64,000 nt of DNA, taken from Candidatus Omnitrophota bacterium. GTDB lineage: Bacteria > Omnitrophota > Gorgyraeia > Zapsychrales > Fredricksoniimonadaceae. The stretch covers positions 18,110-82,109 of the forward strand of contig CAJARJ010000020.1 of assembly GCA_903944345.1 (NCBI GenBank). The letters run 5' to 3'. Below, piece after piece: positions 23,750 to 43,427 of this stretch. How positions within the stretch are numbered: the stretch's first letter is position 1; each line of letters opens with the position of its first letter. A program made the translations under genes and the position numbers. Under the pieces are notes generated by a model, which saw nothing but the letters and a program-made list of their open reading frames with translations, made no database searches and was not told where the DNA came from.

Positions 23750-24811
23750 TTATCCCTTCTTGGCCATAAACTTGACCAGGTCAACAACGCGGTTGGAATA
23801 ACCCCACTCGTTGTCATACCAGGAAACAACTTTGAAAAAGCGCTTCTCGCCCTTGAGATTATTCTGCAGGGTCGCCAACGAATCATAAATCGATGAACGC
23901 GGATCATGAATGAAGTCGGTTGAAACCAGCTCTTCATCCGTGTAACCCAGAATGTCCTTCAAATAGGTCTTTGAGGCATTCTTCAGCTTCTCATCGATTT
24001 CTTCGATCGAAGTGTCACGCGCTGCGGTAAACGTCAGGTCAACCACTGAAACATCAGCGGTGGCCACACGAAACGCCATCCCTGTCAGCTTACCCTTTGT
24101 CGCCGGAAGAACTTCGCCAACCGCCTTGGCCGCACCGGTTGAAGACGGAATCGTGTTAATTGCCGCCGCACGTCCGCCACGCCAATCTTTCTTGGAAGGG
24201 CCGTCAACAGTCTTCTGCGTTGCAGTATAAGCATGGATCGTAGTCATAAGACCCTTGTCGATACCAATACCTTCCTTGAGCAGAACATGCACCAGCGGGG
24301 CCAGACAGTTGGTCGTGCAAGACGCGTTGGAAACAATATTGTGCTTGGCAGGATCATATTCATTCTCGTTAACGCCGATAACCAAAGTCTTGACCTCACC
24401 CTTGCCAGGTGCGGAAATAATAACTTTTTTAGCTCCGGCTTCCAGATGGCCTTTGGCCTTCTCGCTGTCGGTAAAAAGACCGGTAGACTCGATAACATAA
24501 TCAACACCCAGCGCCTTCCAGGGCAGCTCGGCGGGATTGCGTGTCGCGGCAACGCACTTGATCTTGTGGCCGTTGACAACCAGAACATCGCACTCTTCCT
24601 TGGAAGCATCGCTCTTGACCGCCTTAACCTCATGCTTGAACTTGCCATGCACTGAATCATACTTGATCTGATAGGCAAAATACTCGGCATCGGTCGAAAC
24701 GTCGACAACCGCGACAACGTCGATCTCTTTGCCCAGAAGCCCCTGGTCGCAAATGGCCTGAAAAACCATGCGGCCAATACGCCCGAACCCGTTAATACCG
24801 ATCTTGACCAT
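23750..24811 (-). CDS. gap: Glyceraldehyde-3-phosphate dehydrogenase
   Basis: The supporting motifs are [14 protein letters not shown], the active site [12 protein letters not shown] and WYDNEWGYS. Confidence 0.95.
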
Positions 24812-24992
24812 ATACTGCCTCCCTCTCTGGAATGTAAGTTGGATTTGAAGTCCGGATCACACAGCCGCGCTCTCCTGGACAAAAGGAATGCGGTACGAAA
24901 TCCTGAAACTGTCCGGCGATTATAGCAAAAACCAGGATTTGGGCAACTGAATTTACATCTTGCCTGTCTTTGAATGTCGGCTGTCTATAGAC

Positions 24993-26270
24993 TCAGAAAT
25001 TAATCAGCAAGCCCGTGCTTTCGCTCAAAGGCTGCTCAAAATAACTCCCGCGATTTTCTTTGTACGAGTTTTCTGCCAGCAGACGAGCCCGGACAACGTC
25101 GGCAGAGCCTGACAGACGGCCCAGCATGTCCTTGTAAACAGCAGGGAAATACTCTTCTTCCCGGGCTGCAACAAGCACGGCGCGCAAAACCTCCCGCTTG
25201 TTTTCAATAATCGATCGATAGGCTTGCGGTAACCGCGGCAACAACAAACAATGCTCCAGGTAATTAATGGCCCGGATATAGACCTGCCGGGCCTCTGCCA
25301 GAGCCAGATGCGAAGAAAGCACCAAAACACGTGCTTCGCGAACAGAATCGGGCAGCATGTCCAACTGCGCCAGGATCCTGTCAGTAACCGGCACCCCGGG
25401 CAGAGACAAACGGATCAGCTTGCCCTCCGAGACCCGCCCGTCGAGCGAAAAATCTTCTGCCGCCTTCTGCCAGAGGGCGACAAACTCCTGCCGCGCCTCC
25501 GCGACAACAGAGGCAAAGGAACGTTTAGGAAAAACTTCGCTGATATCATTGGCTGTGATCACCACTTCCCCGCTGAGCGCGGCGACCTTGTCACCCTCAT
25601 TAAGCTGTGGAAGTCCCAGCAGTCCCACCGCATCACGCACAACATGCACTGACCTACGCCCGTCTTCAAGCGTCCCGGCATCCTGAATGCAGGGCAGAAA
25701 TGAAAACGGCGCTTTGACCTTGCGACAATCGCCAAGCGCCCGCATCAATCCGTTATCCTGCCTGGCCAGCAGACATTCCCGGACTGAAAGCTTGCGCAAG
25801 CGTTCGTTCAGGTTATCAGAGGGTAAATCCAGCCTTAATAGTCCCAGCTCTTCCAGCAACAAGCTCTGCATGGACTGTGTCCGGTAATGTTTAACAATAT
25901 CTGCCAGCGCGGGACTGGAATACGACAAACGCAACAGGTCATACGCACTGACCGGAACCTTATCCAGCAGGCGTCGGGATAAAAGAGGCCGCAGCCCCTC
26001 CTCAATTTCCTGCCGGAACGCCAGCTCACGATCGTCCAGGCGTACCGGCCGCAGCAGCGGGCCAGTCGAAGCCTTGTCCAGCTCGCTCACTTTGGCTTGG
26101 TGCTGTGCGCGGTCAAGGCCCGGTGTCCGATAATAACAAAACCCCCGGTCGTCAATAACCGCCTTGCGTAAACGGGTATCCGCAGGCGCGTCCGGTGCAA
26201 AAATATCAGCGGCCGCCGGCACTCCCACCAAAAGCAGAACCAGAGGGAACCATCTTAGAACAAACAGCAT
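24993..26270 (-). CDS. Secreted protein of unknown function, last gene of the Tra/Pil operon
   Basis: The signal peptide is MLFVLRWFPLVLLLVGVPAAADIF. The start at the ATG at 26270 has a GGAG RBS and overlaps the traU stop by 16 nt. I recognise no motif. Its size and position next to the TraU-like gene recall the PFL_4711-type partner in ICE T4SS, but this is unverified. Confidence 0.5.
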   Translation of the reverse strand: MLFVLRWFPLVLLLVGVPAAADIFAPDAPADTRLRKAVIDDRGFCYYRTPGLDRAQHQAKVSELDKASTGPLLRPVRLDDRELAFRQEIEEGLRPLLSRRLLDKVPVSAYDLLRLSYSSPALADIVKHYRTQSMQSLLLEELGLLRLDLPSDNLNERLRKLSVRECLLARQDNGLMRALGDCRKVKAPFSFLPCIQDAGTLEDGRRSVHVVRDAVGLLGLPQLNEGDKVAALSGEVVITANDISEVFPKRSFASVVAEARQEFVALWQKAAEDFSLDGRVSEGKLIRLSLPGVPVTDRILAQLDMLPDSVREARVLVLSSHLALAEARQVYIRAINYLEHCLLLPRLPQAYRSIIENKREVLRAVLVAAREEEYFPAVYKDMLGRLSGSADVVRARLLAENSYKENRGSYFEQPLSESTGLLINF

Positions 26271-27157
26271 TCTTTCTGTCTCCAATAAATCCAGACATAA
26301 CTGCCGTCCGCCGAACGCCGGCCGTTCTCCCACAGATCCGCCTGCTCTCCGACGCGCAAGCAACGGCTCTTTGACGGAAAGACCATCTGCAACCGATCCC
26401 TCAATTTGTCTGGCGAGAACATGGCCGGCACAATAATCCGATGCGGAACCAGCATGTTCAACGAAGCAATATCCACCGCCCGGTAGGCTGCCACGGCCGA
26501 GCCGACGGCCTCGCTATAATGAACCAGCTGTCCGGTCCGCGGAAACAACGGCCCCCAGCTGCCCAGACATGCCACAGCCGACAAAGGATGCAGGAAGTTC
26601 TCACACACCGGCCCGGCTGCGGCCAGAAGACGCGCCAGAGGATGCCCTGCTTCCCCGCGACCAACGCGCCACTCGGCAGCGTCAATCTCACTTAAATAGG
26701 ACAATGGCCCCGCAAGATCCGGGGGCCCCTCGCACGGCGCCAGAATAAGAGCAGACACCTGATCAGATAAAGGAAAACCGTAAACATGAACATCGTTCAT
26801 TTGCAAGGCCGTGGTGTCGGAGGCGTACGCGCTCCCGCTGTCGGGAGCGGCCTGACATTCCGCCGCCGCAGTAATGGTCTTGTTCCCCAATGACTGCAAA
26901 AACTTTCCCGCCAACGGACGCAATTCGTCAATCATGACCCGGCCCGGCATCTTGACGGTCTCAACAAGCAAGACCGGTTGACGGTAACGCACTCGCACCC
27001 CCACAAAAGGAGGAGTCGACCGCCGACAAACACCGATCACACGAAAATCCACACAATCCAGATCAGCGCGTAATGCCAGCGTGGACAGACTCTCAGCGCA
27101 GACAGGTACGGACAGCACAAGCCATATCAGCACAGAAACATTTATTACCCGGAACAT
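26255..27157 (-). CDS. traU: TraU-like conjugative T4SS periplasmic protein
   Basis: It has a signal peptide. YLSEIDAAEW compares with F TraU YLSEIDPTW. The C-terminal YVWIYWRQKECCLF compares with F TraU GYLMWRKRNCVFL. An AGGAGAG RBS is present. Confidence 0.75.
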   Translation of the reverse strand: MFRVINVSVLIWLVLSVPVCAESLSTLALRADLDCVDFRVIGVCRRSTPPFVGVRVRYRQPVLLVETVKMPGRVMIDELRPLAGKFLQSLGNKTITAAAECQAAPDSGSAYASDTTALQMNDVHVYGFPLSDQVSALILAPCEGPPDLAGPLSYLSEIDAAEWRVGRGEAGHPLARLLAAAGPVCENFLHPLSAVACLGSWGPLFPRTGQLVHYSEAVGSAVAAYRAVDIASLNMLVPHRIIVPAMFSPDKLRDRLQMVFPSKSRCLRVGEQADLWENGRRSADGSYVWIYWRQKECCLF

Positions 27158-27178
27158 AAGAGCTCTCCTGCCGGAACA

Positions 27179-42344: not shown

Positions 42345-42373
42345 TGGTCAATTTAGTTGACAATTACTCAACA

Positions 42374-42401
42374 AATATAGCATAAATTGACATCATGTCA
42401 A
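42374..42401 (-). promoter_or_regulatory. Sigma70-like promoter of the Tra/Pil operon (-35 TTGACA, 16-nt spacer, -10 TATATT)
   Basis: Read on the minus strand. TTGACA is the complement of 42396-42401 and TATATT is the complement of 42374-42379. The -35 element is embedded in the perfect palindrome ATTGACAT-C-ATGTCAAT (42386-42402). Confidence 0.45.
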
Positions 42402-42449
42402 TGATAATTTTGATTGTTTATCAAATAAAAAGACTTCGGAAGGAGTAAA

Positions 42450-43427
42450 TCAGCTCAAACGATGCTGCAGATGCGCAATCCATTCAGGGTGGGCAAGATA
42501 CCACTCAATCGTATTTTTAATGCCCTGCTCAAAAGGCACCGTTGGCTGCCAGCCCAGTTCCGTGCGAATTCGGGCGGCATCAATGGCATAACGACGATCA
42601 TGCCCCTGGCGGTCTTCTACATAAGAAATAAGACTTTCAGATTTTCCAAGAATATTAAGAATCAGACGGACAATATCAATATTCTTCCATTCATTATTCC
42701 CGCCGATATTATAGACTCGGCCCGGCACCCCCTCATGTAAAACCACGTCGATCGCCGCACAATGATCGCCTACATAAAGCCAATCCCGGACATTAAGTCC
42801 ATCGCCGTAAACCGGCAGAGGCTTGTTCTGCAAGGCATTATTAATCATCAACGGAATCAATTTCTCGGGATATTGATACGGCCCGTAGTTATTGGAACAA
42901 CGGGTTATGATGACCGGGAAACGAAATGTTTCATGATAAGCCCGCGCCAAAAGATCACTGCCGGCCTTGCTGGCCGAATACGGACTATTGGGGGCAAGAG
43001 GAGTTTCTTCGGTAAAATATCCTTGCGGCCCCAAAGACCCGTAAACCTCGTCAGTTGAAACGTGAATAAAACGCTGGATAGAGCAGCCCCGGGCACATTC
43101 CAGAAGAACTTGCGTCCCAAGAACATTCGTGCGAACAAAAACCTCCGGCCCCTCAATGCTGCGATCCACATGAGATTCTGCAGCAAAGTGGATGACCTGG
43201 TCAGCTTGCGACATAACCTGCTGCACGGCCACCCGGTCGGCTATATCGCCCTGAACAAAGGTGTAACGAGGATCGGCAGCCACCGCAACCAGGTTATCGG
43301 GGTTCCCCGCATAAGTCAGCAAGTCAAAATTGATCAACCTGTAGTCCGGATAACGCTCAAGCATGTAGCGAATAAAATTGGAGCCGATAAAACCACATCC
43401 GCCGGTAATAAGCAGTGTCTTTTTCAT
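42450..43427 (-). CDS. rfbB: dTDP-glucose 4,6-dehydratase
   Basis: The supporting motifs are MKKTLLITGGCGFIGSNF, YSASKAGSD and HVSTDEVYG. Confidence 0.95.
   Translation of the reverse strand: MKKTLLITGGCGFIGSNFIRYMLERYPDYRLINFDLLTYAGNPDNLVAVAADPRYTFVQGDIADRVAVQQVMSQADQVIHFAAESHVDRSIEGPEVFVRTNVLGTQVLLECARGCSIQRFIHVSTDEVYGSLGPQGYFTEETPLAPNSPYSASKAGSDLLARAYHETFRFPVIITRCSNNYGPYQYPEKLIPLMINNALQNKPLPVYGDGLNVRDWLYVGDHCAAIDVVLHEGVPGRVYNIGGNNEWKNIDIVRLILNILGKSESLISYVEDRQGHDRRYAIDAARIRTELGWQPTVPFEQGIKNTIEWYLAHPEWIAHLQHRLS

Follow-up and report, generated by a model that had tools for sequence, protein, structure and literature searches.

Between the housekeeping genes of an Omnitrophota chromosome lies a cluster that encodes both a conjugation-type secretion system and a type IV pilus. 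Does such a cluster represent a mobile element or a machine fixed in the chromosome, and what would it do in the latter case? The window considered here is the whole stretch of 64,000 nucleotides that was analysed; an initial annotation of it had favoured a chromosomally fixed machine with a non-conjugative role.

Composition of the operon

Positions 24993-42344 (-) form a single tight operon of 19 genes (about 17 kb), in which a type IVb-like pilus module is embedded between TraC and TraU of a full mating-pair-formation set. The latter consists of a TraG_N/VirB6-like protein, a VirB2-like pilin, TraL, E, K, B, V, C, TraU and a TIGR03755-like protein, covering VirB2-, B3-, B4-, B6-, B7-, B8-, B9- and B10-like parts of a type IV secretion system (T4SS) together with TraU and the TIGR03755-like protein. 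The pilus module includes a secretin, platform proteins, a PilB/MshE-like ATPase and two prepilins, one of which carries a tip of the phage tail-fibre type. The operon and its surroundings are listed below, starting from the right neighbours.

42450..46774 (-), rfbB, rfbD, rfbC, rfbA and galE-like, right chromosomal neighbours, outside the machine
42374..42401 (-), promoter-like site TTGACA-16-TATATT (11/12 matches, TG extension)
41079..42332 (-), g417, first gene, polytopic membrane protein, TraG_N/VirB6-like, without the TraG C-terminal domain
40795..41082 (-), VirB2/TraA-like conjugative pilin, 95 aa, signal peptide and two hydrophobic helices
40497..40793 (-), TraL (VirB3-like); Pfam TraL 28.7 bits, TIGR02762 31.7 bits (exceeding the cutoff of 30.95)
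39920..40507 (-), TraE (VirB8-like); Pfam TraE 31.2 bits, TIGR02761 33.6 bits
39238..39930 (-), TraK/VirB9-like candidate, 230 aa, signal peptide; weak TIGR03749 match (E 0.0055)
38087..39241 (-), TraB (VirB10-like); Pfam TrbI 82 bits, NCBIfam F-type TraB 64 bits, TIGR03752 40 bits
37726..38133 (-), TraV-like lipoprotein (VirB7 analogue), lipobox LTSGC; Pfam TraV 19.1 bits (cutoff 21)
35207..37723 (-), TraC (VirB4 ATPase); Pfam TraC_F_IV and P-loop_TraG
34789..35220 (-), predicted lipoprotein, 143 aa, first pilus-module gene, lipobox LASAGC
33335..34792 (-), secretin; Pfam Secretin 99.8 bits, best NCBIfam matches MshL (184 bits) and PilN-family type IVB secretin (153 bits)
32211..33335 (-), bitopic protein, 374 aa; cytoplasmic N-domain, transmembrane segment at about 235-253, periplasmic C-domain
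31694..32188 (-), 164-aa protein with an N-terminal transmembrane or signal segment
31242..31697 (-), 151-aa coiled-coil protein, secreted or periplasmic
29635..31245 (-), PilB/GspE/MshE-type pilus extension ATPase; Pfam T2SSE 326 bits, MshEN 22.4 bits
28583..29662 (-), T2SSF/PilC-type platform protein; Pfam T2SSF 113 bits, GspF 127 bits
28111..28551 (-), prepilin, 146 aa, G/FSLVE cleavage motif; Pfam N_methyl 23.2 bits, TIGR02532
27179..28102 (-), prepilin fused to a phage tail-fibre receptor-binding domain, 307 aa; Pfam N_methyl, Collar (90 bits) and Gp10_C
26255..27157 (-), TraU; Pfam TraU 99.5 bits, TIGR03756 (ICE TraU-like) 63 bits versus 27 bits for F-type TraU
24993..26270 (-), last gene, secreted, all-helical protein of 425 aa, distant TIGR03755 family member
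23750..24811 (-), gap (GAPDH), left chromosomal neighbour, outside the machine

Transmembrane-like segments were found in g417 at residues 63-81, 316-334, 340-358 and 387-405. Its match to Pfam TraG_N reaches 13.8 bits (E 0.028), four of six family members match this model (best 1.7e-13), and the ortholog in V. archaeovorus carries TraG_N as a precomputed annotation. The 95-aa pilin scores below the cutoff for Pfam TrbC/VirB2 (20.9 bits) and matches NCBIfam TraA_gammapb with E 3.6e-4; its ortholog in relative L003 gives 23.4 bits for TrbC. The TraK/VirB9-like candidate sits between TraE and TraB, as in the F-type order. VirB9 homologs were the two best PDB matches of its six-ortholog profile (TrwF, E 0.0018; TraO, E 0.02), and the hhalign comparison with BuS5 TraK was negative. 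TraC obtained 392 bits with the F-type model TIGR02746 (cutoff 567, not reached) and 114 bits with TIGR03744; it is merely 24-28% identical to its best matches among plasmid TraC proteins, and VirB4 and TrwK were its PDB matches. In the family of the last gene, 62 of 116 members match TIGR03755, an ICE (MPF_G-type) transfer protein. Orf55476 of ICEclc, which belongs to the same family, is essential for transfer, and every ICEclc transfer-essential MPF gene (TraG_N, TraU, TIGR03755) is retained in the operon.

Four pilus-module proteins gave no family match in the Pfam and NCBIfam scans. The 143-aa lipoprotein, present in all relatives with 35-55% identity, is by its position a candidate pilotin or PilM(R64)-like protein. 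The 374-aa bitopic protein, also without a PDB match and 20-24% identical to the copies of relatives, is an assembly-platform candidate (PilO of R64 or GspL-like) according to position and topology. The 164-aa protein (platform candidate, PilP/GspM-like, by position) and the 151-aa coiled-coil protein (platform or alignment candidate) are weakly conserved among relatives. By motif match, the ATPase carries two tandem N-terminal MshEN-type c-di-GMP-binding motifs (residues 5-28 and 36-59), scoring 37.9 bits for the c-di-GMP motif NF053729 (cutoff 38). The 146-aa prepilin, with a dN/dS of 0.038 versus L014, is likely the major pilin. For the 307-aa prepilin, PDB matches to the T4 gp12 short tail fibre and to long tail fibres (E 1e-8 to 2e-3) point to a candidate tip adhesin and PilV analogue. 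No prepilin peptidase was found in the window and no transglycosylase in the pilus cluster.

A palindrome, TTGACATCATGTCAA (42387-42401), overlaps the promoter-like site of the island and was seen in the window lineage only. The promoter-like hexamers and TTGACA-type repeats are kept in relative L035, where spacer identity is 89%.

Genomic position and mobility

Pfam models searched against every one of the 54 main ORFs in the window, and NCBIfam models against the 19 island proteins, revealed no relaxase, type IV coupling protein (T4CP), integrase, transposase or ParA/ParB, and no F-type TraN, TraH, TraF, TraW, TrbC or TraG C-terminal families, as the initial annotation had reported. Its further statement that F-type stabilisation and assembly proteins are lacking holds; the TraG_N-like and TIGR03755-like proteins, which it had not recognised, are present and are not among the F-type ones it named. 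About 10 kb past each window end (ENA contig BUCK21-1_SAMEA6872937_METAG-scaffold_4, 335,250 bp; record coordinate = window + 18016), only housekeeping genes were encountered, with no relaxase, T4CP, integrase, transposase or partition gene. Self-mobilisation of the island is impossible with anything encoded within these ~83 kb.

The neighbours of the island are gap on the left and rfbB-D-C-A-galE on the right, as first described, and beyond either end at least 30 kb of housekeeping genes follow. In a related species (about 85% identical) the operon is found between identical gap and rfb neighbours, with the left junction conserved in L014 and the right one in L035, and no empty site occurs among 13 contigs carrying the same gap allele. 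Island and flanks show similar dS towards the relative (0.35-0.78 and 0.29-0.75, respectively), with dN/dS of 0.04-0.24 and 0.01-0.14; purifying selection acts on every island gene. The island shows no anomaly in codon usage (GC3 0.559 in the island versus 0.535 in the flanks, RSCU distances overlapping). No direct repeat is common to the spacers 24812-24992 and 42345-42449, in agreement with the earlier inspection by eye, and no att-like repeats bound the island. The only tRNA or Rfam match, tRNA-Gln (53298-53370), lies 10.9 kb from the island, close to the 11 kb given before. Based on the conserved junctions, matched dS, normal codon usage and lack of an empty site and att-like repeats, it is well supported that the island is chromosomally fixed and no mobile element.

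A recent mobile island, with its integrase and att sites outside the inspected region, could account for the GC content (0.53-0.57, slightly higher than some flanks) and for a tRNA-Asn and recombinase fragment next to L034, a relative of the operon. It is nevertheless highly unlikely in view of two junctions identical in the relative at dS of about 0.5, an island dS equal to that of the flanks, the long housekeeping surroundings, the absent boundary repeats and the indistinct codon usage.

Relatives of the operon and the DNA-processing module

New here is that copies of the operon in a sister clade (clade B), widespread in Omnitrophota, additionally carry a VirD4-type T4CP (755 aa) and a candidate MOB_C-like relaxase, along with a slot for variable cargo. 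The T4CP, p90 and the Replic_Relax-like p257 are inserted between the TraG_N-like and pilin genes, and the variable cargo is located between TraL and TraE. Carriers are L003, L004, L018-L031 and Ca. Velamenicoccus archaeovorus (CP019384.1), a complete genome. PF13814 is the Pfam counterpart of the MOB_C relaxase superfamily, of which VirD4 is the usual partner (PMC5357655). In the basal relative L017, ArdC and SSB adjoin TraE. Gene content thus indicates a conjugative origin of the operon family, since sister-clade operons hold a VirD4-type T4CP and a MOB_C-like protein and the basal relative has ArdC/SSB. As the same operon carries T4CP, MOB_C-like candidate and cargo slot in the sister clade, the window copy can be regarded as a streamlined, non-self-mobile derivative of this family.

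Deep lineages, with TraC 51-56% identical, likewise have the streamlined form without a T4CP. L001 and L002 have it in one common chromosomal context, unlike that of the window, and on contig P0006 it lies amid housekeeping genes. L034, also of this T4CP-less clade, abuts tRNA-Asn and a serine-recombinase fragment, and immobility is thus not clear for all members. Since the TraC tree was rooted with an outgroup of 25% identity, loss versus gain of the T4CP module is argued from parsimony.

A decaying remnant of an integrated conjugative element, functionless now, would explain why relaxase, T4CP, integrase and cargo are missing here while relatives have relaxase, T4CP and cargo. The evidence speaks against it, and we hold it to be very improbable: 19/19 ORFs are intact with lengths equal to those in relatives, dN/dS is 0.04-0.24 at dS of about 0.5, the promoter region is conserved, and gene order is constant across lineages with TraC 45-55% identical.

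Alternatively, the operon could be a working conjugation or mobilisation pore, i.e. a chromosomal helper mating-pair-formation system, with T4CP and relaxase provided in trans from elsewhere in the genome or from a co-resident mobilisable element. The genes for T4CP and relaxase are frequently located far from pilus genes. This would agree with a complete MPF set under purifying selection, in which all ICEclc transfer-essential genes are kept, as expected of such a pore. At least 166 clusters of sister-clade operons with T4CP and MOB_C-like genes (69-97% identity) are found in Omnitrophota, so compatible DNA modules circulate there, and the ~83 kb inspected are a minor part of the genome, on a contig that is 630 kb long or more. 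On the other hand, no T4CP or relaxase gene lies within these ~83 kb, a tblastn search of the window with clade-B T4CP, p257 and p90 as queries yielded nothing at E<=0.01, and among at least 120 clade-B-type T4CPs listed, none falls on the window's contigs (335,250 or 630,836 bp); the listed matches are all at least 69% identical, and a divergent cognate T4CP would escape such a search. Furthermore, several deep lineages have the compact form too, in chromosomal contexts, and the DNA module, where this operon family has one, sits inside the operon. We consider provision in trans possible but rather doubtful.

We lean towards the view that the island derives from a conjugative element of the Omnitrophota type and is now fixed in the chromosome and inherited vertically; its DNA-processing and coupling module (MOB_C-like relaxase candidate, VirD4-type T4CP and cargo slot) was probably lost or never kept. 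For the window copy, either this module is lost for good or one encoded elsewhere is used.

Comparison with known systems and proposed function

In MPF_G ICEs (ICEHin1056, ICEclc, PAPI-1, SPI-7), as in the window, a TIGR03755-family gene adjoins TraU, and the window TraU has TIGR03756 as its best NCBIfam match. The TraG_N/VirB6-like protein and weak matches to TIGR03744, TIGR03749, TIGR03750 and TIGR03752 are further likenesses, although all window scores lie far under the family cutoffs and TraC is nearer to the F-type model (392 versus 114 bits). In PAPI-1 and SPI-7, the MPF_G T4SS is paired with a type IVb pilus cluster needed for transfer; in the window, the pilus genes lie inside the tra operon with no separate cluster, and T4CP, relaxase and integrase are missing. 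The relaxases of these ICEs are MOB_H, whereas the sister clade has a MOB_C-like candidate. The F plasmid (MPF_F) shares the order TraL-E-K-B-V-C followed by TraU, and TraC, TraB, TraE and TraL match F-type models best. However, TraC is at most 28% identical to plasmid TraC; TraW, TrbC, TraN, TraF, TraH, the TraG C-terminal domain, TraD and TraI are lacking, and the type IV pilus module replaces the assembly and stabilisation genes at their place.

The order of the pilus genes matches that of the IncI1 R64 thin pilus (PilL-PilV, type IVb), with a small lipoprotein, secretin, PilO-sized protein, small proteins, ATPase, platform, pilin and tip adhesin, and the secretin matches the PilN type-IVB family (153 bits). 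As in R64, the adhesin-pilin would be expected to bind surface glycans of a partner cell. R64 differs in its I-type T4SS, F/G-like in the window, and in its shufflon-encoded tips, in place of which the window adhesin has a phage tail-fibre Collar domain. Also unlike R64 are the MshE-type c-di-GMP motifs of the ATPase and the lack of prepilin peptidase and transglycosylase in the cluster.

The conjugation machine looks as if it was retained for another contact-dependent job. The pilus, gated by c-di-GMP, may attach the cell to a surface glycan of another cell through the tail-fibre-like tip, by analogy with R64 PilV, after which the T4SS would build a contact channel across the envelope, a VirB2-type pilus, or both. 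With no cognate T4CP, this channel might serve contact or adhesion, export a periplasmic substrate in the manner of Ptl, or take up DNA like ComB. The absence of a prepilin peptidase from the window and of effector, toxin or competence genes linked to the operon speaks against this reading. Of the earlier proposal, the fixed position is borne out by junctions, dS and the 13 contigs; the non-conjugative role is plausible but unproven, and we infer it for a member of a conjugative family.

Helicobacter pylori ComB (DNA uptake), Bordetella Ptl (toxin export) and Brucella VirB are T4SSs working without a T4CP. They appear comparable in having VirB2, B3, B4 and B6-B10 equivalents without VirD4 or relaxase, but they are P-type (MPF_T) and none is known to have a type IV pilus built into it; the window operon has no linked toxin or competence genes. 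A T4CP-independent contact task would suit the epibiotic or predatory lifestyle proposed for Omnitrophota.

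Organization of the operon and its surroundings

The 54 main ORFs of the window were scanned with Pfam, and the island additionally with NCBIfam. Nearly all genes are located on the minus strand.

Main features of the window
Left flank, ending with gap at 23750-24811: B12-binding radical SAM, glycosyltransferase, UbiA and methyltransferase genes, then metF, a 1980-aa secreted protein and gap
24993-42344, minus strand: the island, 17.35 kb
42450-46774: right flank with rfbB, rfbD, rfbC, rfbA and a galE-like gene
Beyond the galE-like gene: methyltransferase/GT2 fusion, DUF2079 gene, PAS histidine kinase, response regulator, tRNA-Gln (53298-53370), ispE, hisG and more housekeeping genes

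The island is one tight operon, in which adjoining genes mostly overlap or are separated by fewer than 32 nt. A near-consensus promoter-like site (TTGACA-16-TATATT, 42401-42374) is situated upstream, and no intrinsic terminator was found 3' of the operon. At or just downstream of the promoter, positions 42336-42401 carry TTGACA-type repeats: the palindrome TTGACATCATGTCAA, followed by TTGTCAA and TTGACC. These repeats are kept in L035, the locus that spans the right junction in a relative of the window, and are missing in other clades; they are a candidate operator of a lineage-specific regulator. The palindrome was rejected as a shared signal, such as an oriT remnant, as it is present in the window lineage only.

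The left flank contains a dense cluster (797-16693) of four B12-binding radical SAM enzymes and two more radical SAM enzymes, of which one has a SPASM domain; GT9 glycosyltransferases, methyltransferases, a UbiA prenyltransferase and a YfhO-like protein are encoded alongside. The cluster probably serves to make a modified lipid or glycolipid of the envelope. Adjoining gap, the 1980-aa protein (17598-23540) carries a papain-like C1 peptidase domain, PKD domains and five InlB B-repeats, and has a counterpart of 1990 aa (dN/dS 0.11) at the same site in L014, the left-junction locus of the relative. It is possibly a surface or secreted factor.

Components of the secretion system and the pilus

The upstream part of the operon encodes, in transcription order, a TraG_N/VirB6-like protein (g417, 41079-42332), a 95-aa VirB2/TraA-like pilin, TraL, TraE, a 230-aa TraK/VirB9-like protein, TraB, the TraV lipoprotein and TraC, while the downstream part consists of TraU followed by a 425-aa secreted helical protein (p425, 24993-26270). 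The g417 protein is polytopic, and its family matched Pfam TraG_N in four of six members (best E 1.7e-13). For the TraK candidate, the two top PDB profile matches were the VirB9 homologs TrwF and TraO; comparison with BuS5 TraK by hhalign revealed no similarity. Word-indexed homologue searches gave few relatives (six for p425, two for g417). A profile built from p425 retrieved 148 representative proteins and TIGR03755 was matched in 62 of 116 of them, a link that holds at the family level only. The assignment of p425 as TraH was rejected, since hhalign against a TraH gave no similarity. In ICEclc, a TIGR03755 protein is essential for transfer and is encoded beside a TraU-like gene, near a TraG_N-like gene (PMC10018362).

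For the F type of mating-pair formation (MPF) systems, the TraL-TraE-TraK-TraB-TraV-TraC order with TraU after it and the best-match models agree. Only TraL reached the NCBIfam cutoff, TraC scored 392 bits against a cutoff of 567, and the TraK call comes from weak VirB9 matches; TraW, TrbC, TraN, TraF, TraH and full-length TraG are missing, the TraG_N part alone being present. For the G type, TraU-like and TIGR03755-family genes are neighbours (the latter at family level, 62/116 members); TIGR03756 scored 63 bits (cutoff 188), TIGR03744 114 bits (cutoff 521), and TIGR03749, TIGR03750 and TIGR03752 were weak. A VirB4 ATPase and the MPF components of conjugative elements were found (TraC, TraL, TraE, a TraK-like protein, TraB, TraV, a TraG_N-like protein, a VirB2-like pilin, TraU and a TIGR03755-like protein). 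Judged from sequence, this part of the operon is a full MPF set placed between the F and ICE (G) types, in which the TraK, TraV and VirB2-like pilin calls are sub-threshold or positional. No plasmid TraC shares more than 28% identity with the TraC of the window. The system adds to the MPF types used by current annotation tools, with which most of these proteins stay below threshold.

Combinations of a type IV secretion system (T4SS) and a type IVb pilus also occur in MPF_G ICEs and IncI plasmids, and exaptation of a T4SS has precedents. The pilus module of the island encodes, in order, a small lipoprotein, a secretin, three platform-sized proteins of 374, 164 and 151 aa, an ATPase, a PilC/GspF-type platform protein, and prepilins of 146 and 307 aa. 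The secretin best matched MshL and type IVB PilN. The platform assignments of the 374-, 164- and 151-aa proteins are positional, and a profile of the 374-aa protein (32211-33335) gave nothing meaningful against the PDB. The core of an R64 PilN-V type IVb pilus is present, with secretin, extension ATPase, platform protein and prepilins with class III signals, which show G/F cleavage motifs with Glu5. No Peptidase_A24 match indicating a dedicated prepilin peptidase was found anywhere in the window. The C-terminal part of the 307-aa prepilin matches the tips of the short and long tail fibres of phage T4. Two tandem MshEN-type c-di-GMP-binding motifs (RLGxxLI...Q) were located at residues 5-28 and 36-59 of the PilB/MshE-type ATPase (29635-31245), where model NF053729 scored 37.9 bits against a cutoff of 38. 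These motifs suggest second-messenger control of a conjugation-associated pilus.

Relatives with and without a coupling protein

The whole gene order is kept in MAG contigs labelled Omnitrophica/Omnitrophota and, for some bins, Planctomycetales. A tree of TraC divided the relatives into two clades.

Clades of the TraC tree
Clade A: window with L014 and L035; L001 and L002; L034; L017; TraC 51-56% identical among members
Clade B: members include L003, L004 and L018-L031; TraC 72-91% identical within the clade, 43-45% to the window

In clade B, the TraG_N-like gene is separated from the gene of the VirB2-like pilin by three additional genes, which encode a 90-aa protein (p90), a 257-aa protein (p257) and a 755-aa VirD4-type coupling protein (T4CP). 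The latter exceeds three Pfam cutoffs and has an unusually long N-terminal region of ~300 aa, membrane-embedded by eye. Replic_Relax (PF13814) scored 23.8 bits against a cutoff of 25.3 for p257, and a PD...ExK motif was seen by eye. PF13814, which has a PD-(D/E)XK fold (PMC3424549), corresponds to the MOB_C relaxase superfamily, typically paired with VirD4 (PMC5357655); p257 is a sub-threshold candidate for a MOB_C-like relaxase. A variable cargo slot of 1-5 kb between TraL and TraE carries genes for RadC, reverse transcriptases, a kinase-like protein, toxin-antitoxin-like pairs, NYN and Imm_superinfect.

Additional regions of clade B (positions in each locus)
p90, MOB_C-like p257 and T4CP: L003 2808-6098; L004 142-3432; L028 1590-4660; L036 9240-12265
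Hypervariable cargo slot: L018 2145-7132; L019 and L025 1-7100; L029 514-5495; L036 12940-14190

Clade B is very widespread, and its T4CP was found in no fewer than 166 clusters (69-97% identity), many of them named Omnitrophota. One of these T4CPs comes from Ca. Velamenicoccus archaeovorus, which has a complete genome of 1.97 Mb (CP019384.1, 595583-617847); ParB_N and HTH_17 genes are situated upstream there.

All members of clade A except L017 carry a compact operon without T4CP module or cargo slot. Its context varies, from gap and rfb in the window to aroD and a toxin-antitoxin pair in L002, shared with L001. On another contig (P0006), the half from the ATPase to p410 occurs alone, in a split arrangement among ftsK, miaB, tatAC and hemN. 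L034 (10001-12532) passes from a 156-aa platform protein straight to the p425 homologue, without ATPase, platform protein, pilins and TraU; tRNA-Asn and a Zn_ribbon_recom recombinase fragment come next. In L017, basal in clade A (TraC 50% identical to the window), TraE is immediately preceded by genes for an IS110-family transposase, ArdC (with ArdcN and zincin peptidase domains) and SSB (798-6337). Conjugative elements typically carry genes of this kind. Parsimony favours a conjugative origin of the family, with the compact form derived, a direction that is not secure, as the tree is rooted on a 25%-identical outgroup. The mobile form, with T4CP and relaxase candidate, and the streamlined chromosomal form of this operon offer a natural experiment on the exaptation of conjugation machines.

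Chromosomal fixation and possible function

The window lies within ENA contig BUCK21-1_SAMEA6872937_METAG-scaffold_4 (335,250 bp; record position = window + 18016), and ~10 kb past each window end only housekeeping genes and no mobility genes were present in precomputed Pfam data. The initial annotation had recognised no relaxase, T4CP, integrase, transposase or partition gene in the 64 kb, and family scans of the 54 ORFs agreed. No relaxase was found in these ORFs and 10 kb on each side, where integrase, transposase, Rep and Par genes were likewise not detected; T4SS-DNA_transf, TrwB_AAD_bind and TraG-D_C had no match in the window and its extensions, and tblastn with the clade-B p257 and T4CP was negative. 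The reported lack of TraN, TraH, TraF, TraW, F-type TrbC and the TraG C-terminal domain was confirmed by Pfam and NCBIfam scans and hhalign. The boundary spacers indeed share no direct repeat, with short chance-level matches only, inside coding regions, and tRNA-Gln is the only tRNA or Rfam match, as the annotation's single distant tRNA implied.

The proposal that the island is fixed in the chromosome also held, based on identical junctions in a relative, co-divergence of island and flanks, and the lack of an empty site and of boundary repeats. In this relative, which shares ~85% nucleotide identity with the window, the island has the same neighbours: TraU, p424, gap, the 1990-aa protein and metF at the left junction (L014), and galE, rfbA, rfbC, rfbD, rfbB, g416, pilin and TraL onward at the right (L035).

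Divergence between the window and the relative (Nei-Gojobori)
Island genes: dS 0.35-0.78; dN/dS 0.04-0.24
Flanking genes: dS 0.29-0.75; dN/dS 0.01-0.14

Since dS of the island is close to that of the flanks, the island diverged together with its surroundings, and every island gene is under purifying selection. None of the 13 contigs with the same gap allele shows an empty site; p425 is upstream of gap in all 13. The codon-usage comparison called for earlier showed no anomaly (GC3 0.559 in the island, 0.535 in the flanks; overlapping codon-usage distances). Two other explanations, that the island is a decaying remnant or a recent acquisition, are both disfavoured, as the selection and junction data oppose them.

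The machine is intact and under selection, comprising VirB2-type and type IV pilus systems, an envelope-spanning core, an ATPase with c-di-GMP motifs and a tail-fibre-like adhesin. By analogy with R64 PilV, the pilus might attach the cell, under gating by c-di-GMP, to a glycan on the surface of another cell, and the T4SS core could serve as a contact channel or pilus. Without a T4CP, the machine would perform a T4CP-independent job, for which ComB (DNA uptake) and Ptl (toxin export) are precedents. For such a ComB- or Ptl-like reading no substrate is identifiable, and the absence of a T4CP covers ~83 kb only. In the main rival explanation, the island machine may work in trans with a T4CP and a relaxase from another part of the genome. 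The analysis covered ~83 kb of a contig that spans 630 kb or more, and close clade-B sequences saturated the search for the T4CP, which a divergent T4CP in this genome could escape.

Tentatively, at somewhat less than even confidence, the island is proposed to be an F/G-like T4SS permanently joined to a tail-fibre-tipped, c-di-GMP-gated type IV pilus within a single operon, lacking relaxase and T4CP, and domesticated by ultra-small Omnitrophota-type bacteria as an organelle for host or prey contact (T4CP-independent transfer, DNA or nutrient uptake, or adhesion). The same proposal would make the parent family an MPF type not yet described, which combines MOB_C, VirD4 and an embedded type IVb pilus and forms ICE-like elements across Omnitrophota, including Ca. 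V. archaeovorus. If true, this T4SS lineage would here show its first chromosomal, non-conjugative exaptation. Omnitrophota, a widespread group of ultra-small bacteria, have been proposed to live as predators or parasites; the operon is a concrete, testable candidate for their cell-cell contact. Surveys of Omnitrophota name T4a pili, Tad pili, giant proteins or ORFs and T2SS/Tad-like loci, and no Tra/T4SS system (including PMC10066038). No description of this T4SS-pilus cluster was found in the literature searched, including that on V. archaeovorus. What appears to be new is the fusion of T4SS and pilus in a single operon, along with the tail-fibre pilin, the c-di-GMP motifs, the pairing with MOB_C and the streamlined chromosomal form without T4CP.

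The ~160 nt spacer between p425 and gap (24812-24975, minus strand, upstream of gap) is essentially 100% identical between the window and L014, in contrast to a coding dS of 0.3-0.75. This conserved gap leader, for which RNA folding was not significant (z = 0.14) and Rfam gave no match, includes a promoter-like site, TTGCCC-16-TATAAT. The spacer that holds the operon promoter shows 89% identity between the two species, with both hexamers kept.
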